From a virus (taxonomy: Duplodnaviria; Heunggongvirae; Uroviricota; Caudoviricetes): a stretch of 34,628 bases of DNA. The stretch lies in IMG/VR virus record IMGVR_UViG_2558860472_000005, positions 1-34,628 of that record. One strand, given 5' to 3'. Each line of letters opens with the position of its first letter. The first letter of the stretch is position 1. The notes under the pieces are model-generated. The model saw nothing but the letters and a program-made list of their open reading frames with translations, was not told the DNA's origin and ran no database searches. The translations under genes and the position numbers were made by a program. Shown one piece after another: positions 9,872-34,628 of this stretch.

Positions 9872-9872
9872 G

Positions 9873-13335: not shown

Positions 13336-13338
13336 TTT

Positions 13339-14260: not shown

Positions 14261-14332
14261 ATCTATAGATGACACTCCACGTTCGTATAAGATAATGCTA
14301 AATTACTATTAGCTTAATCACAGGAGACGGAC

Positions 14333-15196: not shown

Positions 15197-15272
15197 TTTT
15201 TGATTCTCATAATCAATGAATGTTTTTTGTGAATATACTTATTTTAACCCTATAAATAATCAAGGTAATAAA

Positions 15273-15623: not shown

Positions 15624-15649
15624 GAACCAGTTCCCACTGCCAGAGGGGA

Positions 15650-15709
15650 GGGGCGGGTCAAATCCCTGTGACCTGACGTCTTCCGGACTGCCCGCCCCAT
15701 CGTTTTTTT
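15650..15709 (+). terminator. Large hairpin plus T7 tract between HNH and terS (terminator-like; candidate cos neighbourhood)
   Basis: GGGGCGGG (15650-15657) pairs with CCCGCCCC (15691-15698). A T7 run lies at 15703-15709. Confidence 0.4.
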
Positions 15710-15748
15710 ATACCCGCGAAAAATGAAATTTAACCAGGAGTGCCGCAT

Positions 15749-17973: not shown

Positions 17974-17984
17974 CTGAGGTAATT

Positions 17985-18167
17985 ATGATCATGCTGATTC
18001 TCGCGCCTCTGGTGGGCGTGCTGGGTGCGCTTTTGCTGGCATATGGTGCCTGGCTGATTTATCCCCCGGCGGGTTTTGTTGTTGCCGGGGCGCTGTGCCT
18101 GTTCTGGTCGTGGCTGGTGGCGCGATATCTCGATCGTACACAGCTGTCTGTCGGCGGAGGTAAATAG
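17985..18167 (+). CDS. Small hydrophobic 2-TM protein
   Basis: 60 aa, almost entirely two hydrophobic helices. It is tightly packed between terL and the portal gene. Confidence 0.5.
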
Positions 18168-19408
18168 TGTTCTTTTCGGGATTATTTCAACGAAAAAGTG
18201 ACGCGCCGGTGACCACGCCAGCAGAGCTGGCGGATGCCATCGGGTTGTCATACGACACCTATACCGGAAAGCAGATCAGCAGCCAGCGGGCCATGCGACT
18301 GACGGCGGTTTTTTCCTGCGTCAGGGTGCTGGCAGAGTCGGTCGGGATGTTGCCCTGCAATCTGTATCACCTGAACGGCAGCCTGAAAGAGAGGGCCATC
18401 GGCGAACGTCTGCATAAGCTGATCTCCACGCATCCCAATGGCTATATGACGCCGCAGGAGTTCTGGGAGCTGGTGGTCACCTGTCTGTGCCTGCGGGGAA
18501 ACTTTTACGCCTACAAAGTGAAAGCATTTGGCGAAGTGGCTGAACTGCTGCCCGTCGATCCCGGCTGTGTGGTACCGAAGCTTAACAGTAGCTGGGAGCC
18601 GGTCTATCAGGTCACATTCCCGGATGGCTCCACGGATGTACTGAGCCAGGAGGATATCTGGCATGTGCGCACGCTGACGCTGGACGGACTGGTGGGGCTG
18701 AATCCCATCGCCTATGCCCGCGAGGCAATATCGCTGGCGGCAGCGACCGAAGAGCACGGGGCCAGACTGTTCAGCAATGGCGCGGTGACGTCGGGTGTGT
18801 TGCGTACAGAGCAGACGCTGTCAGATCAGGCTTATGAGCGCCTGAAGAAAGATTTTGAGGAGCGTCACACCGGGCTTGGCAATGCTCACCGCCCGATGAT
18901 CCTTGAGATGGGGCTGGATTGGAAGTCGATGGCGCTGAACGCCGAGGACAGCCAGTTCCTGGAAACCCGCAAGTTTCAGCTTGAAGAAATCTGTCGTCTG
19001 TTCCGGGTGCCGTTGCACATGGTGCAGAACACCGATCGCGCCACCTTCAACAATATCGAAGAGCTGGGGCTGGGATTTATCAACTATTCACTGGTGCCGT
19101 ATCTGACCCGCATCGAGCAGCGGATCAACACCGGACTGGTTCGAAAAAGTAAGCAGGGCGTTTATTACGCCAAATTTAACGCCGGGGCGTTACTGCGCGG
19201 GGATATGAAGTCCCGTTTTGAAGCCTACGCCACCGGGATCAACTGGGGAATTTACTCTCCCAATGACTGCCGCGACCTGGAAGATATGAATCCGCGTCCC
19301 GGTGGGGATGTCTATCTCACACCGATGAATATGACCACGAAACCCTCCGATGGCAGTAAAGCCGGTAAGCAGAAGGATAACGCCAATGCAGACGAAACAA
19401 CGTCTTGA
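18167..19408 (+). CDS. Portal protein, HK97 family
   Basis: 413 aa with a GTG start after GGAGG, positioned after terL. The sequence pattern is typical of HK97-type portals. Confidence 0.9.
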   Translation: MFFSGLFQRKSDAPVTTPAELADAIGLSYDTYTGKQISSQRAMRLTAVFSCVRVLAESVGMLPCNLYHLNGSLKERAIGERLHKLISTHPNGYMTPQEFWELVVTCLCLRGNFYAYKVKAFGEVAELLPVDPGCVVPKLNSSWEPVYQVTFPDGSTDVLSQEDIWHVRTLTLDGLVGLNPIAYAREAISLAAATEEHGARLFSNGAVTSGVLRTEQTLSDQAYERLKKDFEERHTGLGNAHRPMILEMGLDWKSMALNAEDSQFLETRKFQLEEICRLFRVPLHMVQNTDRATFNNIEELGLGFINYSLVPYLTRIEQRINTGLVRKSKQGVYYAKFNAGALLRGDMKSRFEAYATGINWGIYSPNDCRDLEDMNPRPGGDVYLTPMNMTTKPSDGSKAGKQKDNANADETTS

Positions 19409-20036
19409 TGTACCGCTGAGTCTGAAATCTGTCAGTGACTCCGGTGAGTTTGAAGGGTATGGCTCCGTCTTTGGTGTAAAGGACAGCCACGATGATGTGG
19501 TGATGTCCGGGGCATTTGCTGCTTCCCTGCGGGCGTGGAGTGACAGAAAAGCGTTACCTGCGCTGCTCTGGCAGCACCGCATGGATGAACCCATCGGTGT
19601 TTACACCGAAATGAAGGAAGACGATGTCGGGCTTTACGTCAGGGGACGGTTGCTTATTGATGATGATCCCCTCGCAAAACGCGCACATGCACACATGAAG
19701 GCCGGTTCGTTAACCGGCCTTTCTATTGGGTACGTCCTGAAAGACTGGGAATACGACCGGAGCAAAGAAGCCTTTCTGCTGAAAGAAATCGACCTCTGGG
19801 AAGTCAGCCTGGTGACGTTCCCGTCTAACGACGAGGCGCGGATCAGCGACGTCAAGAACGCACTGGCCCGCGGGGAAATCCCCGAACAGAAAAAAATCGA
19901 AAGAGTCCTGCGTGATGTCGGACTCTCCCGTACCCAGGCCAAAGCATTCATGGCCGGGGGCTATGGCGCACTGTCCCTGCGCGACGCTGAGGATGTGGGC
20001 TCTGCACTGAATGCACTGAAAAATCTGAACTTCTAA
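19386..20036 (+). CDS. Prohead maturation protease, HK97 (S78) family
   Basis: FEGYGSVFGVKDSHDDVV ... LSIGY ... EVSLVTFPSN. The likely start is ATG at 19386, overlapping the end of the portal gene. Confidence 0.9.
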   Translation: MQTKQRLDVPLSLKSVSDSGEFEGYGSVFGVKDSHDDVVMSGAFAASLRAWSDRKALPALLWQHRMDEPIGVYTEMKEDDVGLYVRGRLLIDDDPLAKRAHAHMKAGSLTGLSIGYVLKDWEYDRSKEAFLLKEIDLWEVSLVTFPSNDEARISDVKNALARGEIPEQKKIERVLRDVGLSRTQAKAFMAGGYGALSLRDAEDVGSALNALKNLNF

Positions 20037-20050
20037 TCAGGAGAAATACG

Positions 20051-21256
20051 ATGGCGGTTGATATTAAAGATGTCGAACAGGTCGCGCAGGAGCTGCAGCA
20101 GAAGTTTGACGACTTCAAAGCAAAGAACGACAAGCGCGTGGATGCGATTGAGCAGGAAAAAGGTAAACTTGCCGGGCAGGTGGAAACCCTGAACGGGAAA
20201 CTCAGCGAGCTGGAAAATCTCAAAAGCGACCTTGAAAAAGAGCTGCTTGAGCTGAAACGTCCGGCAGGTGGTGCGCAAAATAAACTGGCCACCGAGCATA
20301 AAGAAGCGTTTGTGGGCTTCCTGCGTAAAGGCCGTGAAGATGGTCTGCGCGATCTGGAGCGCAAGGCATTGCAGGTGGGCACCGATGAAGACGGTGGCTA
20401 TGCCGTGCCGGAAGCACTGGATCGCAACATTCTCACCCTGCTGAAAGATGAAGTGGTGATGCGCCAGGAAGCCACGGTGATCACTGTTGGCGGTTCCGAC
20501 TACAAAAAACTGGTGAATCTGGGCGGCACGGCTTCCGGATGGGTGGGCGAGACTGACGCGCGCTCCCAGACTGCCACCTCAAAACTGGGACTGATTGAAC
20601 CTTTCATGGGGGAAATCTACGGCAACCCGCAGGCCACCCAGAAAATGCTGGACGATGCCTTCTTCAACGTGGAGGCCTGGATCAACAGCGAGCTGGCAAC
20701 CGAATTTGCCGAACAGGAAGAAATTGCCTTTACCTCAGGCGATGGCACCAAGAAGCCGAAAGGGGTCCTGGCGTATGAATCCACTGATGAAACCGATAAG
20801 GTCCGGGCGTTCGGCAAACTTCAGCATATTGTATCCGGCGAAGCGACGGCGGTGACCGCAGACGCCATTATCAAACTGATTTACACGCTGCGTAAGGCAC
20901 ACCGCACTGGCGCGAAGTTCATGATGAACAACAACAGCCTGTTTGCCATCCGTCTGCTTAAAGACAGCGAGGGTAACTATCTGTGGCGTCCGGGGCTGGA
21001 ACTGGGGCAGCCGTCCTCTCTGGCGGGTTACGGTATCGCTGAAAACGAACAGATGCCGGATATCGCCGCTGATGCGAAAGCCATTGCATTTGGTAACTTC
21101 AAACGGGGTTACACCATCGTTGACCGTATCGGCACCCGCATTCTGCGTGACCCGTACACCAATAAACCGTTTGTCGGTTTTTATACCACCAAGCGCACCG
21201 GCGGGATGCTGGTCGATTCGCAGGCCATCAAACTGCTGAAGATTGCAGCGGCGTAA
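20051..21256 (+). CDS. Major capsid protein, HK97 family
   Basis: 401 aa. The N-terminal part is a coiled-coil delta domain, followed by HK97-fold-type sequence (..GGYAVPE.. ..KPKGVL..). It lies after the protease gene. Confidence 0.95.
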   Translation: MAVDIKDVEQVAQELQQKFDDFKAKNDKRVDAIEQEKGKLAGQVETLNGKLSELENLKSDLEKELLELKRPAGGAQNKLATEHKEAFVGFLRKGREDGLRDLERKALQVGTDEDGGYAVPEALDRNILTLLKDEVVMRQEATVITVGGSDYKKLVNLGGTASGWVGETDARSQTATSKLGLIEPFMGEIYGNPQATQKMLDDAFFNVEAWINSELATEFAEQEEIAFTSGDGTKKPKGVLAYESTDETDKVRAFGKLQHIVSGEATAVTADAIIKLIYTLRKAHRTGAKFMMNNNSLFAIRLLKDSEGNYLWRPGLELGQPSSLAGYGIAENEQMPDIAADAKAIAFGNFKRGYTIVDRIGTRILRDPYTNKPFVGFYTTKRTGGMLVDSQAIKLLKIAAA

Positions 21257-21305
21257 TCACTCAGGGGCGCGGAACCGCGCCCCCTGTTCTGACGGGTGAA
21301 GAATC

Positions 21306-21506
21306 ATGATCCTGAAACAAGATCTGAAATGGTCACCGGACGGTATGCGTGTTGAGGTCATTCGGGCCGGTGAGTATGACGACGGGGCGCTTCCTGCCCG
21401 GGTGCAGGAGATTGCACTTCAGGCCGGGTTAGCAGAGCGCGGAATCAGTGCAAAAAGCAGTAAAGCGGCAAAAGAGAAAAAAGCCACGACCAGTAAAGAG
21501 GGCTGA
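21306..21506 (+). CDS. Hypothetical small head-module protein
   Basis: 66-aa ORF between the capsid and connector genes, with a Lys-rich tail. Confidence 0.4.
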   Translation: MILKQDLKWSPDGMRVEVIRAGEYDDGALPARVQEIALQAGLAERGISAKSSKAAKEKKATTSKEG

Positions 21507-21508
21507 GT

Positions 21509-21832
21509 ATGCTTCTGACAATGGAAGAGATTAAAGCCCAACTCCGGCTGGATGAGGATTTCGATGCTGATGACCGCCATCTGCAACTGCTGGCCTGTGC
21601 GGCACAAAAGCGGACGGAAACGTATCTGAACCGGAAGCTCTATGCACCGGATGAAACCATTCCGGACAGCGATCCGGACGGGCTGCACCTGCCGGATGAT
21701 ATTCGTCTGGGGATGCTGATGCTTATCAGCCATTTTTACGAAAACCGCTCGTCGGTTACGGAAGTGGAGAAACTCGACATGCCGCAGAGTTTTGGCTGGC
21801 TTGTCGGCCCGTACAGGTACTTTCCGCAATGA
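21509..21832 (+). CDS. Head-tail connector (gp6-like)
   Basis: The N-terminus MEEIKAQLRLDEDFDADD..L is typical of gp6-like connector proteins. Confidence 0.8.
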   Translation: MLLTMEEIKAQLRLDEDFDADDRHLQLLACAAQKRTETYLNRKLYAPDETIPDSDPDGLHLPDDIRLGMLMLISHFYENRSSVTEVEKLDMPQSFGWLVGPYRYFPQ

Positions 21833-22239
21833 AAATTCGTCAGGCGCAGACCAGCGCAACCTACATTCTGCCGGACCCCGGTGAACTGAATAAACGCGTC
21901 CTGATCCGCCTGCGGGTGGATATGCCCGCGGATAACTTTGGCGTGGAGCCTCAATACCCGGTTACGTTCCGGACATGGGCGAAGGTTATCCAGACCAGTG
22001 CCACCACCTGGCAGGAAACCGCGCAGACCGGGGACGCCATCACCCATTACATCACCATTCGTTACCGCCGGGGGATCACCGCTGATTATGAGGTGGTCTG
22101 CGGTGACAGTGTGTACCGGGTGAAACGTCAGCGCGATCTGAACGGGGCGCGGCGCTTTCTGCTGCTGGAGTGTACGGAGCTGGGCGAATGTAGGCAGAGT
22201 CACGGAGGCAACAATGACGACTTCCTTTTTGCACGTTGA
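21829..22239 (+). CDS. Head closure / head-tail adaptor protein
   Basis: Assigned from position, size and the motif ITIRYRRGIT..Y.V. Confidence 0.7.
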   Translation: MKIRQAQTSATYILPDPGELNKRVLIRLRVDMPADNFGVEPQYPVTFRTWAKVIQTSATTWQETAQTGDAITHYITIRYRRGITADYEVVCGDSVYRVKRQRDLNGARRFLLLECTELGECRQSHGGNNDDFLFAR

Positions 22240-22720
22240 TTTTCAGCAGCCCGCGGAGATGCGCTTTAACCGCGCCCGTGTCCGGCGGGCGTTTGTCACG
22301 ATTGGTCAGCGTCATATGCGTGATGCCCGTCGGCTGGTGATGCGCCGTGCGCGGTCGGCACCGGGTGAAAACCCCGGTTATCAGACCGGACGCCTGGCTC
22401 GTTCAATTGGTTACATGGTACCCAGAGCCAGTAAACATCGCCCTGGTTTTATGGCACGTATAGCCCCTAACCAGCGTAATGGAGAGGGAAACCGCCGTAT
22501 CATCGGTGATTTTTATCCGGCTTTTTTGTTCTATGGCGTGAGGCGAGGGGCAAAGCGTCGTCGCAGCCATCATCGTGGTGCATCCGGTGGCAGCGGCTGG
22601 CGACTGGCTCCACGTAATAACTTCATGGTGGAAACGCTTGAAAAGAACCGCAGCTGGACACGCTATTTTCTGGCGCGGGAATTGCGTAAATCACTGAAGC
22701 CGGAGCGACGACACAGATGA
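22214..22720 (+). CDS. HK97 gp10-like neck protein
   Basis: Assigned from position and the motif FYPAFLFYGVRRG. Confidence 0.65.
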   Translation: MTTSFLHVDFQQPAEMRFNRARVRRAFVTIGQRHMRDARRLVMRRARSAPGENPGYQTGRLARSIGYMVPRASKHRPGFMARIAPNQRNGEGNRRIIGDFYPAFLFYGVRRGAKRRRSHHRGASGGSGWRLAPRNNFMVETLEKNRSWTRYFLARELRKSLKPERRHR

Positions 22721-23277
22721 AACTGACGCCTGTTATTGCTGCACTGCGTGCCCGCTGTCCGTATTTTGAAAACCGGGTTGCAGGCGCGGCCCAGTTCAAA
22801 AATCTGCCGGAGGTCGGAAAGCTGAAACTCCCGGCGGCATATGTTGTACCGGGTGATGATTCTCCGGGAGAAAACAAAAGCCAGACCGACTACTGGCAGG
22901 AGCTGAAAGAGGGTTTCTCCGTGGTTGTCATACTGAGTAACGGGCATGATGAGCGCGGTCAGTTTGCCTCGTATGATGTGGTGGACGATGTCCGGCAGAT
23001 GCTCTTTAAGGCTCTGCTGGGCTGGAACCCGGAGGCGTGCGGTAACCCGATTACCTATGACGGCGGCACGCTGCTGGATCTGAATCGTCATGAGCTGATT
23101 TATCAGTTCGATTTTTCGGTCATCAGCGAGCTGACCGAAGACGATACCCGCCAGCAGGATGATCTGAACAGTCTGGATGAACTGCAAACGCTGGCGATTG
23201 ATGTTGATTATCTCGAGCCCGGTAACGGGCCTGACGGCGATATCGAACATCACACCGAAATAACCCTTCCTTCCTGA
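22717..23277 (+). CDS. Tail completion / Mu gp37-like protein
   Basis: 186-aa ORF with a 4-nt overlap, located immediately before the sheath module. Confidence 0.55.
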   Translation: MKLTPVIAALRARCPYFENRVAGAAQFKNLPEVGKLKLPAAYVVPGDDSPGENKSQTDYWQELKEGFSVVVILSNGHDERGQFASYDVVDDVRQMLFKALLGWNPEACGNPITYDGGTLLDLNRHELIYQFDFSVISELTEDDTRQQDDLNSLDELQTLAIDVDYLEPGNGPDGDIEHHTEITLPS

Positions 23278-23285
23278 GGATCCTC

Positions 23286-23456
23286 ATGTTTGTCAAACCT
23301 GTTAAAGGGCGGTCAGTTCCTGACCCTACCCGCGGCGACCTTTTGCCCGCCGAAGGGCGAAATGTTGACGAGAACAACTACTGGCTGCGCCGTGAAGCAG
23401 CGGGTGATATCCGGCGCGTGAATAAAAAGGTGAATACCGATGACGATAAGCTTTAA
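23286..23456 (+). CDS. Small conserved pre-sheath protein (DUF2635-like)
   Basis: 56-aa ORF missing from the track (below its length cut-off). SD GAGGA lies 5 nt upstream. MFVKPVKGRSVPDPTRGDLLPAEGRNVDENNYWLRR.. It overlaps the sheath start. Confidence 0.5.
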   Translation: MFVKPVKGRSVPDPTRGDLLPAEGRNVDENNYWLRREAAGDIRRVNKKVNTDDDKL

Positions 23457-24936
23457 CACCATTCCGTCGAATACGCTGGTTCCGCTGTTTTATGCGGAAA
23501 TGGATAACCAGGCGGCGAATACTGCACAGGACAGCGGGGCATCGTTGCTGATTGGTCACGCCAATAACGGTGCAGAGATTGTTGCCAACAGTCTGGTGCT
23601 GATGCCGTCGGCAGACTATGCACGCCAGATTTGTGGTGCGGGAAGTCAGCTGGCGCGTATGGTTGAGGCTTATCGCCAGACCGACCCGTTTGGCGAGCTG
23701 TATGTGATTGCCGTTCCGGAAGCCACAGGCGCGGCGGCAACGGTTACGCTGACGGTGACCGGGGCGGCAACCGAAACCGGCACGGTGAATGTTTATGTGG
23801 GACGTACCCGCGTGCAGGCACCGGTGACCAACGGCGATAACGTCACGACGATTGCCAGCAGTATCCAGGATGCCATTAATGCCGTCCCGGCCCTGCCGTT
23901 TACGGCCTCATCTTCGGCAGGCGTGGTCACGCTGACCGCGCGTCATAAGGGGCTTTGCGGGAATGAAATTCCTGTCAGCCTCAATTACTACGGCTTTGGT
24001 GGGGGCGAAGTGCTGCCAGCGGGCGTACAGATTGCTGTGGCGACGGGGAGCGCCGGAACGGGCGCTCCGGTTCTCACCGGCGCGGTGGCTGCAATGGCGG
24101 ATGAGCCGTTTGATTATATTGGCCTGCCGTTCAACGACACGGCCTCCGTTAACACGCTGGTGACAGAGATGAACGATACCAGCGGTCGCTGGAGCTATGC
24201 GCGTCAGCTGTATGGTCATGTGTATACGGCAAAGATCGGCACGCTGTCAGAACTGGTGACCGCAGGTGACCAGTTTAACCAGCAGCACATTACCCTGGCG
24301 GGATACGAAAAAGAGACCCAGACGCCTGCCGACGAGCTGGCGGCAAGCCGTACCGCCCGCGCAGCGGTGTTTATTCGCAACGATCCGGCACGTCCCACGC
24401 AGACCGGTGAGCTGGTGGGTATGCTGCCTGCGCCGAAGGGGAAACGGTTCACGATGACCGAACAACAGACCCTGCTGTCTCATGGCGTGGCAACGGCGTA
24501 TGTCGAAAGCGGGGTGCTGCGCATTCAGCGTGATGTCACCACGTACAGGAAAAACGCTTACGGTGTTGCGGATAACAGCTACCTCGACAGCGAGACGCTG
24601 CATACCAGCGCGTATGTGCTGCGCAAACTGAAATCCGTCATTACCAGTAAGTACGGGCGTCACAAGCTTGCCAGCGACGGTACCCGCTTTGGTCCCGGTC
24701 AGGCGATTGTCACACCGGCGGTGATCAAAGGGGAACTGCTGGCAACCTACCGTCAGCTTGAGCGTGCGGGGATCGTGGAAAACTACGAACTGTTTAAGCA
24801 GTACCTGGTTGTGGAGCGTGATGCCAGCGATCCGAACCGCCTGAACACGCTGTTCCCGCCTGACTATGTTAACCAGTTGCGTGTCTTTGCCGTGGTTAAC
24901 CAGTTCCGTCTTCAGTATTCAGAGGAGTCTGCATAA
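23440..24936 (+). CDS. Contractile tail sheath protein (Mu gpL-like)
   Basis: 498 aa, the first large gene of the tail module, followed by the tube and chaperone genes. Confidence 0.85.
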   Translation: MTISFNTIPSNTLVPLFYAEMDNQAANTAQDSGASLLIGHANNGAEIVANSLVLMPSADYARQICGAGSQLARMVEAYRQTDPFGELYVIAVPEATGAAATVTLTVTGAATETGTVNVYVGRTRVQAPVTNGDNVTTIASSIQDAINAVPALPFTASSSAGVVTLTARHKGLCGNEIPVSLNYYGFGGGEVLPAGVQIAVATGSAGTGAPVLTGAVAAMADEPFDYIGLPFNDTASVNTLVTEMNDTSGRWSYARQLYGHVYTAKIGTLSELVTAGDQFNQQHITLAGYEKETQTPADELAASRTARAAVFIRNDPARPTQTGELVGMLPAPKGKRFTMTEQQTLLSHGVATAYVESGVLRIQRDVTTYRKNAYGVADNSYLDSETLHTSAYVLRKLKSVITSKYGRHKLASDGTRFGPGQAIVTPAVIKGELLATYRQLERAGIVENYELFKQYLVVERDASDPNRLNTLFPPDYVNQLRVFAVVNQFRLQYSEESA

Positions 24937-25292
24937 TGGCCCGTATCGGGGGAACCTGTTATTTCAAAATTGACGGTCAGCAGCTATCGCTGACCGGCGG
25001 CATTGAGGTGCCCATGAACAGGACGGTCAATGATGACATCATCGGCCTGGACGGTTCAGTGGACCGCAAGGAAACTCACCGTGCGCCTTATGTCAAAGGG
25101 ACCTTCAAGGTGCCGAAGAATTTTCCGGTGAGCAAAATCACCTCGTCTGATGAGATGACCATCACTGCCGAGCTGGCGAACGGTCAGGTCTATGTATTGT
25201 CGTCCGCCTGGCTGCACGGCGAAGCGAACCATAATGCCGAAGAAGGCACGGTTGATCTTGAGTTCCACGGTGAAGAAGGGGATTACCAGTAA
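24936..25292 (+). CDS. Tail tube protein (Mu gpM-like)
   Basis: 118 aa, with an ATG overlapping the sheath stop. Confidence 0.75.
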   Translation: MARIGGTCYFKIDGQQLSLTGGIEVPMNRTVNDDIIGLDGSVDRKETHRAPYVKGTFKVPKNFPVSKITSSDEMTITAELANGQVYVLSSAWLHGEANHNAEEGTVDLEFHGEEGDYQ

Positions 25293-25561
25293 TGAAAGAG
25301 CTTGAGTTAAAGAAACCGATTATCGCTCATGGTGAGACACTCTCCGTACTGGAGTTTGATGAACCCACCGGGAAGGATGTCCGCGAGCTGGGGTATCCCT
25401 ACCAGATGAATCAGGATGAGTCCGTCAGACTTCTGGCGCATGTGGTGTCGAAATACATTGTGCGGCTGGCGAAAGTGCCGCAAAGCTCTGTCGACCAGAT
25501 GTCTCCGGCAGACCTGAATGCAGCGGCGTGGCTTGTGGCTGGTTTTTTCCTCCAGGCCTGA
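25292..25561 (+). CDS. Tail assembly chaperone (short form)
   Basis: 89 aa, immediately upstream of the tape measure gene, with a slippery site near its 3' end. Confidence 0.7.
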   Translation: MKELELKKPIIAHGETLSVLEFDEPTGKDVRELGYPYQMNQDESVRLLAHVVSKYIVRLAKVPQSSVDQMSPADLNAAAWLVAGFFLQA

Positions 25562-25710
25562 CGGCTGAATACCTCACTGATCGCTTCTTTGACTGCGCCA
25601 GCTACTGGCGCATTAATCCCTTCGAATTGCTGAATATGCCGATCAGTGAAATTCCCTTGCTGGTCAGTCAGGCAAACAGGATAGAGCAGGAGAAACGCAC
25701 ACATGGCTGA
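25292..25710 (+). CDS. Tail assembly chaperone, frameshift-extended form
   Basis: The fusion ...WLVAGFF/PPGLTAEYLTDRFF...EKRTHG is predicted from the slippery site. Confidence 0.6.
25543..25549 (+). promoter_or_regulatory. Programmed -1 frameshift slippery heptamer T_TTT_TTC
   Basis: The heptamer is in the correct X_XXY_YYZ phase of the chaperone frame. The -1 frame stays open to 25710 and ends overlapping the tape-measure start. Confidence 0.7.
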
Positions 25711-27538
25711 ATTTGAGCTTAAGGCGTTGATCACCGGTGTCGACAGGCTTTCTCCCGCGCTGTCGAAAATGCAAAAGAAAATCCGGGGATTTAAACGCCA
25801 GGCGGAAGAAGCGTCACAGGGTGGGCTGGCGCTTGGTGGCGGACTGGCAGCGGGGCTGACGCTTTCCCTGAAATCTTATGCCGATCAGGAAAACGCCGCT
25901 ACCGGGCTGAAAGTCGCCATGATGGATGCGAACGGCGAGGTTGGAAAGAGCTTTCAGGACATCAATAAACTGGCTATTGGCCTGGGTAACCAGCTACCCG
26001 GTACAACGGCTGATTTCCAGAACATGATGCAGATGCTGGTGCGTCAGGGGATCCCGGCAGAAAACATTCTGGGTGGTGTGGGTAAAGCGACAGCTTATCT
26101 TGCGGTACAACTGAAAAAAACACCGGAAGCGGCTGCCGAGTTTGCCGCAAAGATGCAGGATGCTACCGGAACGGCCTCAGAAGACATGATGGGGCTGTTC
26201 GACACAATTCAGAAGGCGTTTTATCTGGGCGTTGACGACACCAACATGCTGTCATTCTTCACTAAAACCAGCTCTGTTCTGAAGATGGTGAATAAGGACG
26301 GTCTTCAGGCTGCACAGAGTCTTGCCCCCATCAGTGTCATGATGGATCAGATGGGGATGAACGGGGAGTCGGCAGGTAATGCCCTGCGAAAAGTTATCCA
26401 GTCCGGATTAAGCGTTAAGAAAATCAGGGACGTCAATAAAATCATGGCCCGCCAGAAACTCGGGGTACAGCTCGATTTTACTGATGGCAAAGGGAGTTTT
26501 GGTGGTCTTGATAACATGTTTAAGCAACTGGCAAAGTTGCGAAAACTGACCGACGTTAAGCGAACAGGCGTACTTAAGGCAATATTTGGTGATGATGCCG
26601 AAACCCTTCAGGTGGTCAATGCACTAATCGATAAAGGAAAGGATGGCTACGATCAGATCCAGCAGAAGATGAATAAACAGGCCAGCCTGAATAAACGTGT
26701 TCAGGCACAGCTTGGTACGCTGTCCAACCTGTGGGAGGCAATGACGGGGACCGCAACTAACGGCCTTGCGGCTATTGGCGGCGCATTTTCTGGTGACGCC
26801 AAAAATATCACGCAATGGCTGGGGGAGTTGGGGGAAAATTTCACGAAGTTTGCGGATGAAAATCCCCGGGTTATTCGCGGCGTCGTCGGGCTTGCTGCCG
26901 GTCTTGCGGTTCTGAAACTGGGATTGATGGGCGTGGGCAGTGCCATCAGTATTGTCAGCAGGATTATGTCGATGACGCCGATTGGCGTGATTGCGACGGC
27001 GATAGCCCTGGCTGCGGGATTAATTATCACTAACTGGGATGTTGTCGGACCTTATTTCAAGAAGCTCTGGGAAACCATTAGTCCTTATTTTGAGGCTGGC
27101 TGGGAACTTCTGAAGAAGGTTTTTGCCTGGTCGCCGCTGGGGATGGTGATCAATAACTGGGGACCGGTTGTTAAGTGGTTTCAGGATATGTGGGATAAGC
27201 TGAAGCCGATTATTGAATGGTTTACCGACAGTTCCGGTGACACGGTCGATGCCATTAACTCGGCGCAGTGGGGCGCGGGTGCTTATGATGCTTATGGGAC
27301 GGGAATACCGGCGCGGGGATACACACCTTATCCGGCGGTAGATCTGGCTCAGGCAAACAACGCCTCCGATGCCACAGGCCCGAATCCCTTCATGATTAAC
27401 AAAGCTTCTGCGCCAAAAGTTGACGGTGAGATCAAGGTCTCTTTTGTGAATTCGCCTCCGGGTATGCGGGTTATGGAAACGCGATCCAGCGGTTTTGATA
27501 TGAATCACGATGTTGGCTATACGCATATTGGCAGATGA
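25703..27538 (+). CDS. Tail tape measure protein
   Basis: 611 aa and helical, with a hydrophobic block (GVVGLAAGLAVLKLGLMGVGSAISIV ... IATAIALAAGLII). It lies after the chaperone pair. Confidence 0.9.
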   Translation: MAEFELKALITGVDRLSPALSKMQKKIRGFKRQAEEASQGGLALGGGLAAGLTLSLKSYADQENAATGLKVAMMDANGEVGKSFQDINKLAIGLGNQLPGTTADFQNMMQMLVRQGIPAENILGGVGKATAYLAVQLKKTPEAAAEFAAKMQDATGTASEDMMGLFDTIQKAFYLGVDDTNMLSFFTKTSSVLKMVNKDGLQAAQSLAPISVMMDQMGMNGESAGNALRKVIQSGLSVKKIRDVNKIMARQKLGVQLDFTDGKGSFGGLDNMFKQLAKLRKLTDVKRTGVLKAIFGDDAETLQVVNALIDKGKDGYDQIQQKMNKQASLNKRVQAQLGTLSNLWEAMTGTATNGLAAIGGAFSGDAKNITQWLGELGENFTKFADENPRVIRGVVGLAAGLAVLKLGLMGVGSAISIVSRIMSMTPIGVIATAIALAAGLIITNWDVVGPYFKKLWETISPYFEAGWELLKKVFAWSPLGMVINNWGPVVKWFQDMWDKLKPIIEWFTDSSGDTVDAINSAQWGAGAYDAYGTGIPARGYTPYPAVDLAQANNASDATGPNPFMINKASAPKVDGEIKVSFVNSPPGMRVMETRSSGFDMNHDVGYTHIGR

Positions 27539-27554
27539 CGGAACCAGATATAAT
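27528..27554 (+). promoter_or_regulatory. Candidate promoter of the PH-domain cassette
   Basis: TTGGCA (27528-27533), 15-nt spacer, perfect TATAAT (27549-27554). The spacer is short, so this is tentative. Confidence 0.35.
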
Positions 27555-27590
27555 TTGTCTTTAAGTTTGTTATCAACTGAAGGGAAATCT

Positions 27591-27968
27591 ATGGGTCTGT
27601 TACATGCCATTATAGGTAATGCCGGTGAAATTAATGCATCAGATGCACAACAGGAATTAGGGGCTGTTTTAGGTGAGGGAGAAAATGTCGAACTTGCCTA
27701 TAAACTCATTCGTGACCAAATTATTCTGACTAACAGAAGGTTAATTTTTATTGATAAGCAGGGTGTCACAGGGAAAAAAGTAGAGTATCGTTCGATTCCT
27801 TATAAATCTGTGACAAACTTTTCTATTGAAACCGCCGGGCATCTTGATCTTGATGCTGAAATGAAGATCTGGATTTCTGGTATTGCAGAACCGATAAAAA
27901 AACAGTTCAGTAAAGGAGCAAACATTTATAAATTGCAGGCTCATCTGGCTCAAAAAATAGCAGGGTAA
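27591..27968 (+). CDS. Bacterial PH-domain protein (bPH_1 / YokE-like)
   Basis: The likely start is ATG at 27591 after GAAGGGA. MGLLHAIIGNAGEINASDAQQELGAVLGEGENVELAYKLIRDQIILTNRRLIFIDKQGVTGKKVEYRSIPYKSVTNFSIETAG..DLDAEMKIWISG matches the remembered bPH_1 family pattern. G+C is lower than the flanking tail genes. Confidence 0.7.
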   Translation: MGLLHAIIGNAGEINASDAQQELGAVLGEGENVELAYKLIRDQIILTNRRLIFIDKQGVTGKKVEYRSIPYKSVTNFSIETAGHLDLDAEMKIWISGIAEPIKKQFSKGANIYKLQAHLAQKIAG

Positions 27969-27994
27969 ACCTTACATTAATTTATGTCTTTCAT

Positions 27995-28018
27995 GCCCAC
28001 TTCGGTGGGCTTTTTTAT
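27995..28018 (+). terminator. Rho-independent terminator after the PH-domain gene
   Basis: GCCCAC-TTCG-GTGGGC followed by a T6 tract. Confidence 0.75.
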
Positions 28019-28031
28019 ATCCGGAGTTTAT

Positions 28032-29360
28032 ATGACGTGGAAAGACAGGCTTCAGGACGCGTCATTTCGCGGTGTGCCGTTTAAGGTTGAAGAAGAAAGT
28101 GCGGGAACAGGTCGCCGTGTGGAAACACACGAATATCCGAACCGCGACAAACCCTATACCGAAGATCTGGGAAAAGTCACTTTCCGCCCGTCCATCACGG
28201 CTTATGTGGTGGGCGATGACTGCTTTGACCAGCGCGATCGCCTGATTGACGCGCTGAATAAACCCGGTCCCGGCACGCTTGTCCATCCGACTTACGGTGA
28301 GCTGAAAGTCTGTGTTGACGGGGAAGTTCGGGTCAGCACATCGAAGAGTGAAGGGCGTATTGTCCGCTTTGACCTGAAGTTTGTCGAAGCGGGAGAACTC
28401 TCTTACCCCACTTCAGGTGTGGCGACGGCGCAGACGCTGATGTCATCCTGTTCTGCACTGGATGACTGCATCAGTGACAGTTTCAGTGGTTTCAGTATCG
28501 ATGGCGTGGCGGATTTTGTGCAGAACGACGTCGTCGGTAATGCCAGCACAATGCTTGGGTATGTTTCTGATGCGATGAAAGTGGTGGATTCTGTCGTATC
28601 GGATGCCGCCAGACTGTTGCAGGGGGATATCTCGGTACTTCTGCCTCCGCCATCGTCAGGCAAAAACTTCGTTGAGCAGGTGCAGAAAATGTGGCGTACC
28701 GGGAAACGCCTTTATGGTAACGCCAGCGACCTGGTCACCATGATCAAGACGCTTTCCGGTGTCAGCCTTGGCAGCGATCTGCAACCGCGCGGCGTCTGGA
28801 AAACGGTCAGTAAAACCACCGCCAAGGCTACGCAGCAGCGTAACGTGGTTGCCAGCACCCTTCGTACGACCGCAATCAGCGAAGCGGCGTATGCCATCAC
28901 CCGATTGCCTGCGCCAACAACTTCCGCGGTGATGCAGAATGCCGCAGTGGGGCAGTCAACAACACCCGCGCAGAGCACCGGCTGGCCTTCCGTCACGCAT
29001 CCGGCACTGAACAATGCACCGGCGGTGAAAAACACGGTTGACCTGCCAACGTGGGAAGAACTGACTGACATTCGCGACACACTGAATACGGCAATTGATA
29101 AGGAGTTGTCCCGTACAACCAGTGATGCGCTGTTTCTGGCACTGCGCCGGGTGAAAGCAGATCTGAATGCGGATATCAACACGCGCCTTGAACAGTCTGC
29201 ACGGATCATTCAGCGCACGCCGGATGAGGTCTTACCCGCGCTGGTGCTGGCGGCGACCTGGTTTGATAACGCGGCGCGTGACGCGGACATTATCCGGCGT
29301 AATGCCATTACGCATCCCGGCTTTGTGCCGGTGATCCCTCTGAAGGTGCCAGTGCAATGA
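28032..29360 (+). CDS. DNA circulation protein (Mu gpN-like)
   Basis: The true start is probably ATG at 28032 after GGAG, because the track start 27984 would include the terminator. MTWKDRLQDASFRGVPFKVEEES..GRRVETHEYPNRDKPYTEDLG is the typical N-terminal domain. Confidence 0.8.
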   Translation: MTWKDRLQDASFRGVPFKVEEESAGTGRRVETHEYPNRDKPYTEDLGKVTFRPSITAYVVGDDCFDQRDRLIDALNKPGPGTLVHPTYGELKVCVDGEVRVSTSKSEGRIVRFDLKFVEAGELSYPTSGVATAQTLMSSCSALDDCISDSFSGFSIDGVADFVQNDVVGNASTMLGYVSDAMKVVDSVVSDAARLLQGDISVLLPPPSSGKNFVEQVQKMWRTGKRLYGNASDLVTMIKTLSGVSLGSDLQPRGVWKTVSKTTAKATQQRNVVASTLRTTAISEAAYAITRLPAPTTSAVMQNAAVGQSTTPAQSTGWPSVTHPALNNAPAVKNTVDLPTWEELTDIRDTLNTAIDKELSRTTSDALFLALRRVKADLNADINTRLEQSARIIQRTPDEVLPALVLAATWFDNAARDADIIRRNAITHPGFVPVIPLKVPVQ

Positions 29361-30436
29361 ACGATAACGTCACGCTACGGGTAAATGGCCGGGAGTGGAA
29401 TGGCTGGACATCGGTGCGCATCGGTGCCGGTATTGAACGGCTGGCGCGGGATTTCAGCGTGGAGATCACCCGCCAGTGGCCGGGAGATGAGGGTATCACC
29501 ACGCTTCAGCCGCGCATTAAAAATGGTTCAAAAGTGGAAGTGCTGATTGGTGATGAGCTGGTGATCACCGGCTGGGTGGAGGCGACCCCCGTTCGTTACG
29601 ATGCCCGTTCGGTCAGCACAGGTATTGCCGGACGTAGTCTGACTGCTGACCTGATTGACTGTGCAGCCGAACCGACACAGTTTAACGGACGATCGCTGGT
29701 ACAGATTGCGCAGGCGCTTGCTGCGCCTTTCGGCATTGAGGTGGTGAACAGCGATGCGCCGTCGGGTGTTATTCCGGATGTCCAGCCTGATCACGGTGAA
29801 ACGGTGATCGAGGTGATCAACAAAATACTCGGTCAGCAGCAGGCGCTGGCTTATGACGACCCGCACGGCAGGCTGGTGATTGGTGGTATTGGCTCAACGC
29901 GGGCACATACCGCGCTGGTACTTGGGGAAAACATCCTTTCCTGTGATACGGAGAAGAGTATCCGGGAGCGGTTTTCAGTTTACCAGGTGGCGGGGCAGCG
30001 TGCCGGAAACGACGATGATTTCGGTGAGGCCACCACCACCGCGCTGCGGGCCCGCACAGAGGACGCATTTATTGCCCGTTACCGTCCGATGTATATCAGG
30101 CAGACAGGGCAGGCTACGGGGGCAGGCTGTATTGCCCGTGCGGACTTTGAAGCCCGACAACGGGCGGCGCGGACGGATGAAACCACCTATGTGGTGCAGG
30201 GCTGGCGACAGGGTAACGGTACGCTGTGGCAGCCTAACCAGCGGGTGATTGTCTTTGATCCGGTCTGTGGTTTCGACAATACCGAACTGCTTGTTTCGGA
30301 AGTCACGTTTACTCAGGACCAGAACGGCACCCTGACGGAAATCCGTGTCGGCCCGCCTGATGCTTATCTGCCTGAACCCGAAGCCCCCGGCGCGCGGAAA
30401 AAGAAAAAAGCCAGAGTACAGGAGGACCCGTTCTGA
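29357..30436 (+). CDS. Baseplate hub / late control D-like protein (Mu gpP-like)
   Basis: 359 aa. Assigned from position and the Mu-like gene order. Confidence 0.75.
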   Translation: MNDNVTLRVNGREWNGWTSVRIGAGIERLARDFSVEITRQWPGDEGITTLQPRIKNGSKVEVLIGDELVITGWVEATPVRYDARSVSTGIAGRSLTADLIDCAAEPTQFNGRSLVQIAQALAAPFGIEVVNSDAPSGVIPDVQPDHGETVIEVINKILGQQQALAYDDPHGRLVIGGIGSTRAHTALVLGENILSCDTEKSIRERFSVYQVAGQRAGNDDDFGEATTTALRARTEDAFIARYRPMYIRQTGQATGAGCIARADFEARQRAARTDETTYVVQGWRQGNGTLWQPNQRVIVFDPVCGFDNTELLVSEVTFTQDQNGTLTEIRVGPPDAYLPEPEAPGARKKKKARVQEDPF

Positions 30437-30984
30437 TGAGGACGATTGAAGCCATGCAGCGACAACTCCTCGGCCTGATTGGGCGGGCCGTGGTGAAAAG
30501 CATCAGTGCCGCCACGAAATGTCAGACCGTGGATGTGTCCCTGATTGCCGGTGAACCCAAAGCCGGGGTTGAACATCTTGAACCCTACGGTTTTACCGCA
30601 AGGGCAAACAGCGGTGCGGAAGCGGTGGTGTTGTTTCCGGATGGCGACCGTTCTCATGCGGTGGTTGTTACGGTGTCGGACCGTCGCTACCGCCTGAAAG
30701 GGCTGCAGACTGGGGAGGTGGCTGTCTATGACGATCAGGGGCAGTCCGTGACGCTGACCCGGGAGGGGATCGTGGTGGACGGTGCAGGTAAAACGATCAC
30801 GTTTCGCAATGCGCCTAAGGCACGTTTTGAAATGGGCCTGGAAGTGACAGGACAGGTGAAAGACCTGTGCGACTCCGGCGGCACCACCATGTCAGCGATG
30901 CGGCTTGCCTATAACGGGCATCGTCACAGAGAGAACGGTCAGGGCAGTAACACCGACAAACCTGATAAAGCGATGGAGGCATGA
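30436..30984 (+). CDS. Baseplate assembly protein V / spike (Mu gp45-like)
   Basis: 182 aa. ..EHLEPYGFTARANSGAEAVVLFPDGDRSHAVVV.. is typical of gpV-type spikes. Confidence 0.8.
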   Translation: MRTIEAMQRQLLGLIGRAVVKSISAATKCQTVDVSLIAGEPKAGVEHLEPYGFTARANSGAEAVVLFPDGDRSHAVVVTVSDRRYRLKGLQTGEVAVYDDQGQSVTLTREGIVVDGAGKTITFRNAPKARFEMGLEVTGQVKDLCDSGGTTMSAMRLAYNGHRHRENGQGSNTDKPDKAMEA

Positions 30985-31409
30985 TGGAACTGTGGCTGAC
31001 GGTGAACGGTAAACGCACCTGCGCCAGCGCACCGCTGGATCCGCTGACCCGCGCCGTGGTGATTTCCCTGTTTACCTGGCGGCGGGCGGAGCCTGATGAC
31101 AACGCCGACGTCCCGATGGGATGGTGGGGGGATACCTGGCCTGCGGTACAGAATGACCGTTACGGCTCCCGACTGTGGCTGCTTCAGCGCAGCAAACTGA
31201 CCAATCAGCTGGTGCAGACGGTAAGGGGGTATATCCGCGAATGCCTGCAATGGATGATTGATGACGGCGTGGTGTCCCGTATTGATCTGGATATCCGCCG
31301 CACCGGGATTAATGAACTGGGTAACAGTATCACTCTCTGGCGTCGTGACGGACCGGTAATGATTTCTTTTGATGATCTGTGGAGTGCGATAACGCATGGC
31401 GGACAGTGA
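30981..31409 (+). CDS. Baseplate protein gp46-like
   Basis: 142 aa with a 4-nt overlap, located between the V-like and J-like genes. Confidence 0.7.
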   Translation: MMELWLTVNGKRTCASAPLDPLTRAVVISLFTWRRAEPDDNADVPMGWWGDTWPAVQNDRYGSRLWLLQRSKLTNQLVQTVRGYIRECLQWMIDDGVVSRIDLDIRRTGINELGNSITLWRRDGPVMISFDDLWSAITHGGQ

Positions 31410-32454
31410 ATTTCAGCGCCCGACGCTGGCAGAAAATATCAGTATGCTCCGTAACGATTTATTCGCCAGGCTGGACGTCAGCGACACGCTCCGGCGCATG
31501 GATGAAGACGTGCGGGCAAAGGTGTATGCGGCGGCGCTGCATACGGTTTACGGGTACATCGATTATCTGGCAATGAACATGCTGCCTGACCTGTGCGATG
31601 AGTCCTGGCTGGCGCGACATGCTGCGATGAAACGGTGTCCGCGCAAGGGGGCCACGACTGCCAGCGGGTATATGCGCTGGGAAGGCGTCAGCGATGGCCT
31701 GAAGGTGACCGCCGGGAGTGTTATTCAGCGCGATGACCTGGTTCAGTACACGGCAACTGCCGATGCAACCAGCGCCGGTGGTGTCTTGCGCGTGCCGATC
31801 GCCTGCTCAAGTGCAGGCGCGGTCGGTAACGCTGACGACGGTACGTCATTAATCCTGGTCACGCCGGTTAATGGTCTGCCGTCTTCCGGCGTGGCAGACA
31901 CTCTGACAGGTGGATTTGATACTGAAGATCTGGAAACGTGGCGCGCCCGCGTCATTGAGCGGTATTACTGGACGCCTCAGGGCGGGGCTGACGGGGACTA
32001 TGTTGTCTGGGCTAAAGAAGTGCCCGGCATTACCCGCGCATGGGCATACCGTCACTGGATGGGAACGGGGACTGTCGGTGTGATGATTGCCAGCAGTGAC
32101 CTGATTAATCCCATTCCGGAAGAATCAACGGAAACGGCGGCAAGACAACATATCGGGCCACTGGCCCCGGTGGCAGGCTCTGATTTGTATGTGTTCAGGC
32201 CGGTGGCGCATACGGTGGATTTTCATATCCGTGTGACGCCAGATACACCGGAAATACGGGCTGCCATCACCGCGGAGTTGCGTTCGTTCCTGTTGCGTGA
32301 TGGTTATCCGCAGGGAGAACTGAAGGTGTCGCGTATCAGTGAAGCGATTTCCGGTGCGAACGGGGAATACAGCCATCAATTGCTTGCACCGGCGGAAAAT
32401 ATCTCCATTGCAAAAAATGAACTGGCGGTTCTGGGGACGATTTCATGGACGTGA
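31396..32454 (+). CDS. Baseplate J-like protein (Mu gp47-like)
   Basis: 352 aa, in the position and with the pattern of the baseplate wedge J family. Confidence 0.8.
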
Positions 32455-33029
32455 CAAACGATGATTACATCCGTCTGTTGTCGGCACTGCTGCCGCCCGG
32501 TCCGGCGTGGTCAGCCAGCGATCCGGCGATTGCCGGTGCGGCACAGTCATTAACCCGCGTTCATCAGCGTGCGGATGCCCTGATGCGGGAGCTGGATCCG
32601 CGCACCACCACCGAACTGATAAATCGCTGGGAGCGTCTGTGCGGCCTGCCGGATGAATGTATTCCCGCAGGAACACAGACCCTTCGCCAGCGTCAGCAAC
32701 GACTGGATGCGAAGGTTAACCTGGCGGGCGGCATCAATGAGGATTTTTACCTTGCACAGCTTGCTGCCCTGGGCAGACCAGACGCCACCATCACGCGATA
32801 CGACAAAAGCACGTTCACCTGCTCATCGGCCTGTACTGACGCGGTGAATGCGCCGGAATGGCGGTATTACTGGCAGGTCAACATGCCAGCCGCCACCAAC
32901 AGCACCTGGATGACATGTGGCGATCCCTGTGATTCCGCGCTGCGTATCTGGGGCGACACCGTCGTCGAATGTGTGCTTAACAAACTCTGCCCTTCGCATA
33001 CCTACGTAATTTTTAAATATCCGGAGTAA
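32445..33029 (+). CDS. Baseplate/tail protein gp48-like (YmfQ-like, DUF2313)
   Basis: 194 aa. [16 protein letters not shown] pattern, located immediately before the tail fibre gene. Confidence 0.75.
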
Positions 33030-33032
33030 TCC

Positions 33033-33803
33033 ATGCATCGTATAGACACGAAAACCGCGCAGAAGGATAAGTTCGGCGCGGGTAAGAACGGTTTTACCCG
33101 TGGTAACCCCCAGACTGGCACGCCTGCCACCGATCTGGATGATGACTACTTTGACATGTTGCAGGAGGAGCTTTGCAGCGTGGTGGAGGCATCCGGTGCC
33201 AGCCTGGAGAAGGGGCGGCACGATCAGTTGCTTACCGCACTTCGCGCGCTGCTGTTAAGCCGCAAGAATCCGTTTGGCGATATCAAATCGGATGGCACGG
33301 TGAAAACGGCTCTCGAAAACCTTGGTTTGGGAGAAGGTTCGGCATTACCCGTTGGTGTGCCTGTTCCGTGGCCTTCCGCCACTCCGCCAACAGGCTGGCT
33401 GAAATGCAACGGTGCGGCATTTTCTGCTGAAGAATACCCGGAACTGGCAAAGGTTTACCCGACAAATAAATTGCCTGATTTACGCGGTGAGTTTATTCGT
33501 GGCTGGGATGACGGACGTGGTATTGATGCTGGACGAGCTTTATTGAGCATTCAGACAGGGATGCTGGAAAAGCACCGCCATATTGTTGTAGCCAATGATG
33601 GTTATGACACACAAGATGAATGGGAACTGGCTACGATTTTCAAAAAAACATACACACAAGGACGGGGGCTTGATGCCACAAATACAGGAGGGAGTCTGAT
33701 CCCATCACCGACACTTCATTCACGAGGGAGTATCGGTAATACTGGCGGGAGTGAAACCCGTCCACGAAATATTGCATTTAACTATATCGTGAGGGCTGCA
33801 TAA
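33033..33803 (+). CDS. Tail fibre protein with tail-collar domain; constant N-terminus plus invertible C-terminus
   Basis: Collar motif [38 protein letters not shown] Din-family crossover site lies inside the gene at 33310-33335. Confidence 0.8.
33310..33335. promoter_or_regulatory. Din-family (Pin/Gin/Hin/Cin-type) invertase crossover site
   Basis: The reverse complement TTCTCCCAAACCAAGGTTTTCGAGAG is a 12-2-12 imperfect palindrome. It closely resembles hixL TTCTTGAAAACCAAGGTTTTTGATAA and gix TTCCTGTAAACCGAGGTTTTGGATAA. Confidence 0.7.
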
Positions 33804-34405
33804 TGGATAACGCTGTATTAAATAGCGAGCTTATTGCCACGAAGGCGGGGAATATTACCGTCTATAACTATGATTGTGAAACTCGGGAATATATTTCCAC
33901 ATCAACTGAATATCTTGCTGTGGGTGTCGGTATTCCGGCATGTTCCTGTCTGGAGGCACCTGGCATATACAAGGCTGGTTATGCAATTTGTCGCTCTGTG
34001 GATTTAAATTCATGGGAATATATGCCAGACCATCGCGGTGAAATCGTCTATAACACCGAAACGGGAGACGCCAAAGAAATCACAGCTCCGGGTGATTACC
34101 CCGAAAATACAACCACTATCGCCCCGTTAACGCCATACGATAAATGGGATGGTGAGAAATGGGTGACCGATACTGAGGCACAGCATTGCGCCGCAGTAGA
34201 CGCGGCAGAAGCACAGCGTCAGTCACTGATTGATACTGCAATGGCTTCCATCAGTCTGATTCAACTGAAATTGCAGGCCGGGCGGAAGCTGACGCAGGCA
34301 GAAACCACCCGACTTAACGCTGTGCTGGATTACATTGACGCGGTGACGGCAACAGATACCAGCACCGCGCCGGATGTCATCTGGCCTGAACTGCCGGATG
34401 CGTAG
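33803..34405 (+). CDS. Tail fibre assembly chaperone (Tfa)
   Basis: 200 aa. Its ATG overlaps the fibre stop. The conserved C-terminus is LDYIDAVTATDTSTAPDVIWPELP. Confidence 0.8.
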   Translation: MDNAVLNSELIATKAGNITVYNYDCETREYISTSTEYLAVGVGIPACSCLEAPGIYKAGYAICRSVDLNSWEYMPDHRGEIVYNTETGDAKEITAPGDYPENTTTIAPLTPYDKWDGEKWVTDTEAQHCAAVDAAEAQRQSLIDTAMASISLIQLKLQAGRKLTQAETTRLNAVLDYIDAVTATDTSTAPDVIWPELPDA

Positions 34406-34628
34406 GCCATTCAATATCTGGCGCACCGGAAGTATCGACCAGTTCCAGTGCGTCCAGGTAATCCAGCCACAAATTATATTGCGCCAGTTCGTCACCTTTC
34501 AGACGACCAATAGCCGCTTTACCAGGCCATTGTTTACTGTTCATATAATCGTTGGCCTGATTAATCAATTGCTGCTTCTCCAATTCGGCTGCAGCAATTT
34601 GTTCCTCATGTGTTGGTGGTGGAATTTC
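34377..34628 (-). CDS. Alternative tail fibre assembly chaperone (Tfa'), partial, with its 5' end outside the window
   Basis: The minus-strand frame is open to the window edge. The C-terminus LDYLDALELVDTSGAPDIEWP is paralogous to the plus-strand Tfa, and the two are convergent with a 29-bp overlap. Confidence 0.7.
   Translation of the reverse strand, partial: EIPPPTHEEQIAAAELEKQQLINQANDYMNSKQWPGKAAIGRLKGDELAQYNLWLDYLDALELVDTSGAPDIEWPTHPAVQAR

Follow-up and report, generated by a model that had tools for sequence, protein, structure and literature searches.

Does the right-hand end of IMG/VR record IMGVR_UViG_2558860472_000005, a 34,628-nucleotide (nt) stretch of viral DNA that we refer to in its whole length as the window, hold one half of a switch that exchanges the tip of a tail fibre, and, if it does, is the switch a new one or one already known? 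The question is raised by a palindromic sequence inside the tail-fibre gene and by two convergent genes of the Tfa (tail-fibre assembly) type behind it. Invertible tail-fibre segments of the Pin family are textbook systems, and the P segment of the Escherichia coli element e14 was reportedly described by Plasterk and van de Putte (1985). The region is very probably the left half of a Pin-type (Hin/Gin/Cin/Pin) invertible host-range segment within a complete e14-family prophage that encodes a Mu-type contractile tail. The system itself is already known as the e14 P segment, from which the present copy differs only in its fibre-tip sequences and in one outer half-site. A preliminary description of the window had recognised the architecture shared by Mu G, P1 C and e14 P; that likeness stands, with the emphasis shifted from a general resemblance to an actual e14-family P segment in an intact prophage. 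The window contains the following parts of it.

33310-33335, no strand assigned: left 26-base-pair (bp) crossover site of the e14 pix type, CTCTCGAAAACCTTGGTTTGGGAGAA, unique in the window and the same as the e14 left site at 26/26 positions
33033-33803, plus strand: tail-fibre gene as assembled, 256 amino acids (aa), with a Collar domain (PF07484) at residues 108-155 (E 6e-15)
33033-33321, plus strand: constant part of the fibre, codons 1-96, outside the invertible segment and colinear with e14 jayE-ymfQ-stfP, a match that runs up to 33337
33324-33803, plus strand: variable C-terminus of the fibre in the expressed position (Collar and distal receptor-binding part), matching K-12 stfE on the opposite strand
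33803-34405, plus strand: TfaE-like tail-fibre assembly chaperone, 200 aa, with a Caudo_TAP domain of the lambda gpK type (PF02413, E 5.7e-32)
34377-34628, minus strand: 3' part of a silent TfaP-like gene, called Tfa' here, 83 of 146 codons with the rest cut off by the end of the window (PF02413, E 6.4e-24)

The left site is made up of an outer half, CTCTCGAAAACC, the core TT at 33322-33323 and an inner half, GGTTTGGGAGAA, and its 12-bp halves are symmetric around the central TT at nine of 12 positions. It occurs once in the 34.6-kb window even when three mismatches are allowed, and in none of 100 dinucleotide-preserving shuffles. A degenerate pattern for such sites, searched with two mismatches, finds the same single place in the window, against an expectation of 0.16 matches; a second site is absent from the window both at up to three mismatches and by the degenerate pattern. 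Compared with the sites given in database records, the left site matches that of K-12 e14 at 26/26 positions, P1 cix at 20/26 and Mu gix at 18/26. It opens in codon 93 of the fibre open reading frame (ORF), which reads A93 L E N L97 G L G E101 G at this point, and the crossover dinucleotide falls in codon 97. The preliminary description had reported a 26-bp imperfect palindrome in the fibre gene, preceded by about 93 constant residues and interpreted as a crossover site of the Din type; the position, the 9/12 dyad symmetry, and the two 12-bp half-sites flanking a 2-bp core bear it out on each of these counts.

What the window lacks lies just past its right edge in near-identical relatives. One contig (L003; GCA_030202905.1) is 100% identical to window positions 26026-34628 (8.6 kb) and continues beyond the edge, as do two others (L004 and L005) that are at least 99.97% identical to the window. 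All three continue with the rest of Tfa', an ORF for a gp53-like tip, a right site, TTCTCCCAAACCAACCTTTTAGAAAA, and a gene for an invertase of 183 aa. In L003 the full Tfa' ORF of 146 aa occupies positions 8352-8792. The silent tip ORF encodes 115 aa on the minus strand and contains a Gp53-like_C domain (PF21882). The right site, at 9153-9178 of L003, corresponds to window-equivalent positions 35178-35203 and begins 550 bp past the edge; read in inverted orientation it has the core TT (AA on the plus strand) and the inner half GGTTTGGGAGAA, both the same as in the left site. In all three contigs the right site lies 1868 bp from the left one. The invertase gene is found 68 bp beyond the right site and encodes Resolvase (PF00239) and HTH_7 (PF02796) domains. 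Set beside known invertases, the L003 protein shows 88% identity to PinE of K-12, 81% to Cin and 79% to Gin; it also aligns with the crystal structure of Gin, 3UJ3, at E 9e-92, and it retains the conserved-serine motif MLIGYVRVSTNDQN. NCBIfam returned just sub-threshold matches to other serine-recombinase models for the invertase, and none of its models names the fibre, the Tfa proteins or the silent tip. No invertase is encoded in the window itself. The second site, the alternative tip and the invertase had all been placed beyond the right edge in the preliminary description, and inspection of the adjacent sequence for an inverted copy of the site and a serine invertase gene located both in L003, L004 and L005, with the whole set present in the contig that is 100% identical over 8.6 kb. 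The source strain presumably carries the same right half, with an invertase that would be active there.

The geometry of the two sites permits an exchange of tips. When the 1868 bp between the cores of L003 are flipped in silico, the constant part of the fibre is unaltered and the gene stays in frame; its product is then about 214 aa long and ends in a gp53-like tip, and Tfa' comes to lie behind it. Directly after the junction the flipped fibre reads AAKRNVGTGANQ / AAKRNVGTGANQIPDMGSF. The reading frame is kept through the flip because the inner half-sites encode GLGE in both tips. Relatives with the flipped arrangement are annotated with a gp53-like fibre of 213 aa and then a Tfa protein of 146 aa, as the in silico flip predicts.

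Inversion at these sites has also taken place in nature. Window positions 31667-33337 align with e14 jayE-ymfQ-stfP on the same strand with 96% identity, whereas 33317-33554 (stfE, 89.5% nt identity) and 33753-34554 (the tfaE/tfaP region, 88% nt identity) align with e14 on the opposite strand. The same-strand and opposite-strand alignments overlap only in the crossover site, and the segment is therefore inverted relative to MG1655. The same event separates two closely related prophages. The sister prophage of strain ECONIH1 (L001), which is 97% identical to the window, and that of WP4-S18-ESBL-09 (L010) have flanks that are 100% identical over 3892 and 3032 bp, with a segment of 1880 bp between them that is inverted at 99.9% identity; here the alignments overlap only in the two sites, and, apart from the fibre fusion, the annotated proteins of the two genomes share their accession numbers. 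The breakpoints of the natural-inversion alignments coincide with the left site. It could be objected that short A/T-rich dyads can arise by chance, and that the 0.16 matches expected for the degenerate pattern leave room for a fortuitous palindrome, with Tfa genes that converge by coincidence and no recombination site at all. We regard this as next to impossible: the homology to cassettes of P2-like phages starts at the site, and the notion of a chance palindrome is refuted by the inversion breakpoints, which lie exactly on the site, together with its 26/26 identity to the left site of e14.

Both orientations are common. The L003 sequence from ymfQ to the invertase gene was used as a query, as is and flipped in silico, and colinear matches covering at least 80% of it were counted in complete E. 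coli genomes: 50 genomes are colinear with the orientation of the window and 61 with the flipped one, with top matches equal in score. A megablast match to at least part of the region is found in 3364 of 5426 complete E. coli genomes. When metagenome contigs were scanned for exact copies of the right junction peculiar to the lineage of the window, five loci emerged, two of which are 99.6% relatives in the window's orientation. In a third (L019) this right flank adjoins a tip of the Collar type, as in the flipped arrangement, and in another (L020) the right flank stands at both ends of the segment, producing a perfect terminal inverted repeat of 55 nt. The latter is the outcome expected of a k=55 assembly graph when the reads hold both junctions. 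The same scan of genome contigs, at one genome per species, gave no match, which is unsurprising at that sampling. For the K-12 element, sequencing and polymerase chain reaction have demonstrated that both orientations of the e14 P segment co-exist in clonal cultures (PMC4272514), the 1797-bp segment is inverted by PinE and by PinQ, and 33% of 562 deposited genomes have it in the inverted state (PMC12529663). As a separate observation, positions 1-1940 of L020 are ERZ1034915 NODE-4680 and show the assembly pattern that arises when one sample contains both orientations; the invertase ORF of this contig, 162 aa long, diverges at its C-terminus and may be frameshifted.

The window stops before the invertase gene, and the segment in the source strain could be a fossil, with the invertase or the right site lost or inactive and the Collar-tip fibre fixed. 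That single copies can become locked is indicated by PSUO2 and 1332KP, in which the recombinase genes are truncated or frameshifted, and by phage vB_EcoM-689R6, which keeps the left site with a truncated fibre and no second site. Beside the core, the outer half of the right site is also atypical in the lineage of the window. We nevertheless consider a locked segment unlikely, because the 183-aa invertase is intact in all three of the relatives at 99.97-100% identity and keeps the residues invariant among Pin, Gin and Cin, because both junction types occur with the right half-site of this lineage in a metagenome contig, and because other Pin paralogues can flip the e14 P segment in trans (PMC12529663). 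The degraded relatives named above are found at L002 7794-7909, L017 4319-4875 and L015 4089-6370; in vB_EcoM-689R6 the fibre is truncated soon past the left site, and mcrA and an invertase gene lie downstream, like the right end of K-12 e14.

Several of these points weigh against a functional invertible segment as well as for a locked one. The second site and the invertase are outside the window, and their presence in the source strain is deduced from identical relatives; in some relatives, PSUO2 and 1332KP, the invertase gene is frameshifted or truncated. The right outer half-site is TTTTCTAAAAGG in the lineage of the window and TTTTCATAAACG in e14, and the former departs from other sites next to the core; only the metagenome contigs, and these indirectly, speak for its proficiency. 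Fis and an enhancer would presumably assist the inversion, and the Collar (PF07484) and gp53-like (PF21882) tips, which belong to different domain families, may recognise different receptors. On its own account, TTTTCTAAAAGG has GG adjoining the core, a place taken by CC or CG in other sites.

With an invertible segment as the favoured interpretation, the switch would operate in the following way. About 97 constant codons lead up to the 26-bp site and are followed by a segment of about 1.87 kb with two convergent cassettes, one consisting of the Collar-type tip and Tfa and the other of the gp53-like tip and Tfa', and the second site and the invertase gene would lie about 0.55-1.2 kb past the edge of the window. 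A serine invertase dimer would bind each 26-bp site, and the two sites would synapse with a Fis-bound enhancer in the 5' end of the invertase gene, as in characterised members. All four strands would be cut at the central 2-bp core (TT/AA), the subunits would rotate and the ends would be rejoined, flipping the segment. The constant N-terminus would then be fused in frame to the other tip, and the cognate chaperone would move to the transcribed position. The window has the Collar-tip/TfaE-like cassette in the expressed position, opposite to the MG1655 reference e14. In the Hin, Gin, Cin and Pin systems the Fis-bound recombinational enhancer is normally located inside the 5' end of the invertase gene. 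The equivalent stretch of the L003 invertase gene matches the annotated P1 enhancer (cin nt 19-90) at 60/72 positions, but this DNA also codes for a conserved protein, and the identity is not by itself evidence of an enhancer. A promoter and terminator scan of the L003 segment found no excess over shuffles and nothing between the convergent tfa genes, which fits a gene-fusion switch and lends no support to a promoter flip of the Hin type.

A different output has recently been assigned to the K-12 segment, in which inversion creates StfE2, a gp53-like tip with a short stfE leader, that blocks T2 adsorption (Kirigo et al. 2025, PMC12529663). The gp53-like tip likewise adjoins the invertase gene in the orientation of the window, and the main output of the present switch could be anti-phage defence, with inversion creating or exposing a short StfE2-like tip protein that blocks adsorption. 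We consider this quite improbable. Genes for head, sheath, tube, baseplate and fibre are all present and the prophage looks complete, so the fibre switch would keep its ordinary role in the virion, and the silent tip is just 25% identical to the StfP tip of K-12. Moreover, an in-frame TAA stands just upstream of the silent tip, where the codons read TT TTC TAA AAG GTT GGT TTG. The stop results from the outer half-site TTTTCTAAAAGG, and the silent ORF is therefore without an upstream start, unlike K-12 stfE, and has an internal TTG only, which weighs against a conserved role of the StfE2 type. A related proposal, that the silent gp53-like tip ORF is expressed alone, for example from the internal TTG, and blocks the adsorption of unrelated phages, would rest on analogy with StfE2, and we think it very improbable. 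If it were true, the host-range switch of an intact prophage would also be a phase-variable superinfection-defence switch.

The fibre gene in the window is the counterpart of the stfP-stfE fusion that is formed when the K-12 P segment inverts. Its N-terminal part is 96% identical in nt sequence to e14 stfP, and residues 96-256 are 61% identical to K-12 StfE. The Collar part of the tip and the last 15 residues are nearly identical to those of StfE, and the intervening residues at about 183-241 (33579-33755) are unrelated to the StfE counterpart; judged from the alignment, they look like a swapped receptor-binding insert. The TfaE-like gene is annotated as tfaE in relatives. The 3' ends of the two tfa genes overlap by 29 bp at 34377-34405, the same overlap as in K-12 tfaP/tfaE, and the two proteins have related tails, LDYIDA..DTSTAPDVIWP and LDYLDA..DTSGAPDIEWP, with 38% identity over the last 72 aa (E 1e-11). 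The arrangement read from the window in the preliminary description, a variable fibre C-terminus and a Tfa gene past the site and then a second, paralogous Tfa gene on the opposite strand with an overlapping end and a common tail, agrees with the Collar tip, the PF02413 matches and these figures. An 18-nt inverted repeat at 34324-34341 and 34450-34467, 89% complementary with 108 nt between the arms, arises because both convergent Tfa genes encode the LDY(I/L)DA motif on opposite strands. It is a by-product of paralogy, and it could in addition serve as a substrate for homologous inversion or cause an assembly problem.

Two further genes of the window set the context of the segment.

32445-33029, plus strand: baseplate gene of the YmfQ / Mu gp48 family, 194 aa (PF10076 Phage_Mu_Gp48, E 1.4e-26), outside the switch
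920-2104, minus strand: integrase

On its gene content the window appears to be a complete e14-family prophage with the left half of an e14-type P segment at its right end. Besides the integrase and the fibre it encodes an HK97-type head and a Mu-type contractile tail. K-12 e14 matches it in the same order at 5740-7143, 16837-18574 and 31667-33337 with 96-99.6% nt identity; the first two blocks correspond to the ymfT-ymfM and aaaE-beeE region of e14 and are 97-99.6% identical, and the ymfQ-family gene of the third is 96% identical in nt sequence to e14 ymfQ. The blocks 7144-16836 (about 9.7 kb) and 18575-31666 (about 13 kb), which hold the genes for replication, lysis, terminase, portal, HK97-type capsid, sheath, tube, tape measure and Mu-type baseplate, have no equivalent in K-12 e14, where these stretches are missing at the annotated oweE/aaaE junction and at the jayE pseudogene. 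Relatives of the prophage sit beside yejO/yejM and not in icd, the site of K-12 e14; in L003 (10219-17778) and L016 (1-11000) they lie between yejO/narP and yejM-yejL-yejK-rplY. Scans of the window for tRNA genes and Rfam families gave no matches.

The position of the right edge appears to be an accident of assembly. An exact-protein look-up of the fibre led to six contigs. One (L006; GCA_000498255.1, AHHO01000004.1) is 100% identical to window positions 23033-34628, the entire stretch compared, and stops 2 nt past the end of the window, which, going by this identity, is almost certainly the end of that contig. E. coli genomes contain DNA resembling tfa at a median of two places and a maximum of 10, and the contig end that truncates the window was probably caused by repeats, by mixed orientation or by both. 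In three short-read assemblies made independently, contigs end within the tfa genes or where these meet (window end 34628; L006 11598, L007 11366, L008 1505).

As a discovery this locus carries little weight. It does explain the assembly break at the end of the window, and it is a warning to annotators that two forms of the fibre gene are valid. Here the e14 P segment can also be seen in its original context, a myovirus-type prophage that is apparently complete, which bears usefully on the recent claim that inversion of the P segment in the defective e14 of K-12 is an anti-phage defence.

Among known systems the closest is the e14 P segment itself (stfP-tfaP / tfaE-stfE, with pinE). The left site is identical at 26/26 positions, the inner half and core of the right site are identical, the gene order and the 29-bp overlap of the convergent tfa genes are shared, ymfQ and the constant part of the fibre are 96% identical in nt sequence, and the invertase of the identical relative (L003) is 88% identical to PinE. 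The differences are that the window has the opposite orientation to MG1655, that the prophage is complete and, in relatives, lies beside yejO/yejM instead of in icd, and that the segment is 1868 bp long compared with 1797 bp in K-12 (PMC12529663). The tips have diverged as well: the expressed tip is 61% identical to StfE with its distal part replaced, and the silent tip has only 25% identity to the tip of StfP, a member of its own domain family. In the outer half of the right site, TTTTCTAAAAGG stands here in place of the TTTTCATAAACG of e14.

The G segment of Mu (Sc / Sv-U / U'-S'v, with gin) likewise joins a constant N-terminus at a 26-bp site to either of two tip-chaperone cassettes. Its invertase gene also lies just outside the right site, the invertase of the relative is 79% identical to Gin, and the upstream baseplate genes of the window are of the Mu type (gp45-gp48). 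In contrast, the constant part in Mu has about 170 codons and the segment is about 3 kb, compared with about 97 codons and 1.87 kb here; the gix core is TC instead of TT, with 18/26 positions in common; U and U' of Mu do not overlap; and the tips found here, Collar and gp53-like, are unrelated in domain content. The P1 C segment (cin, cixL/cixR) shares the mechanism, the type of site, the core TT and 20/26 positions of the site, and Cin is 81% identical to the relative's invertase. It differs in having the invertase gene on the far side of the segment from the constant part of the fibre, in its segment length of 4.2 kb and in an S fibre of about 1000 aa.

The cassette also occurs on another type of virion. 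The P2-like phage Peduovirus magyaro (NC_041848) carries the same series of Collar tip, Tfa, convergent Tfa', silent tip and invertase, with about 90% nt identity in the cassette, the same inner half-sites and core, and homology that begins at the crossover site. There, however, the cassette is fused to a P2 H-type fibre of 499 aa in a P2-type tail module, and TTCTCGCATACC forms the outer half of each site (L014 3500-5952). In the phage collection as a whole, megablast matches, including those to the cassettes of P2-like phages, begin at window positions 33311-33322, at the site. The combination of the same inner half-sites with different outer half-sites in NC_041848 implies that the inner halves travel with the cassette and that the outer halves belong to the host phage. 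Mosaicism of fibre genes at these sites was reportedly described by Sandmeier, Iida and Arber in the early 1990s, and this pattern of inner and outer half-sites matches their account.

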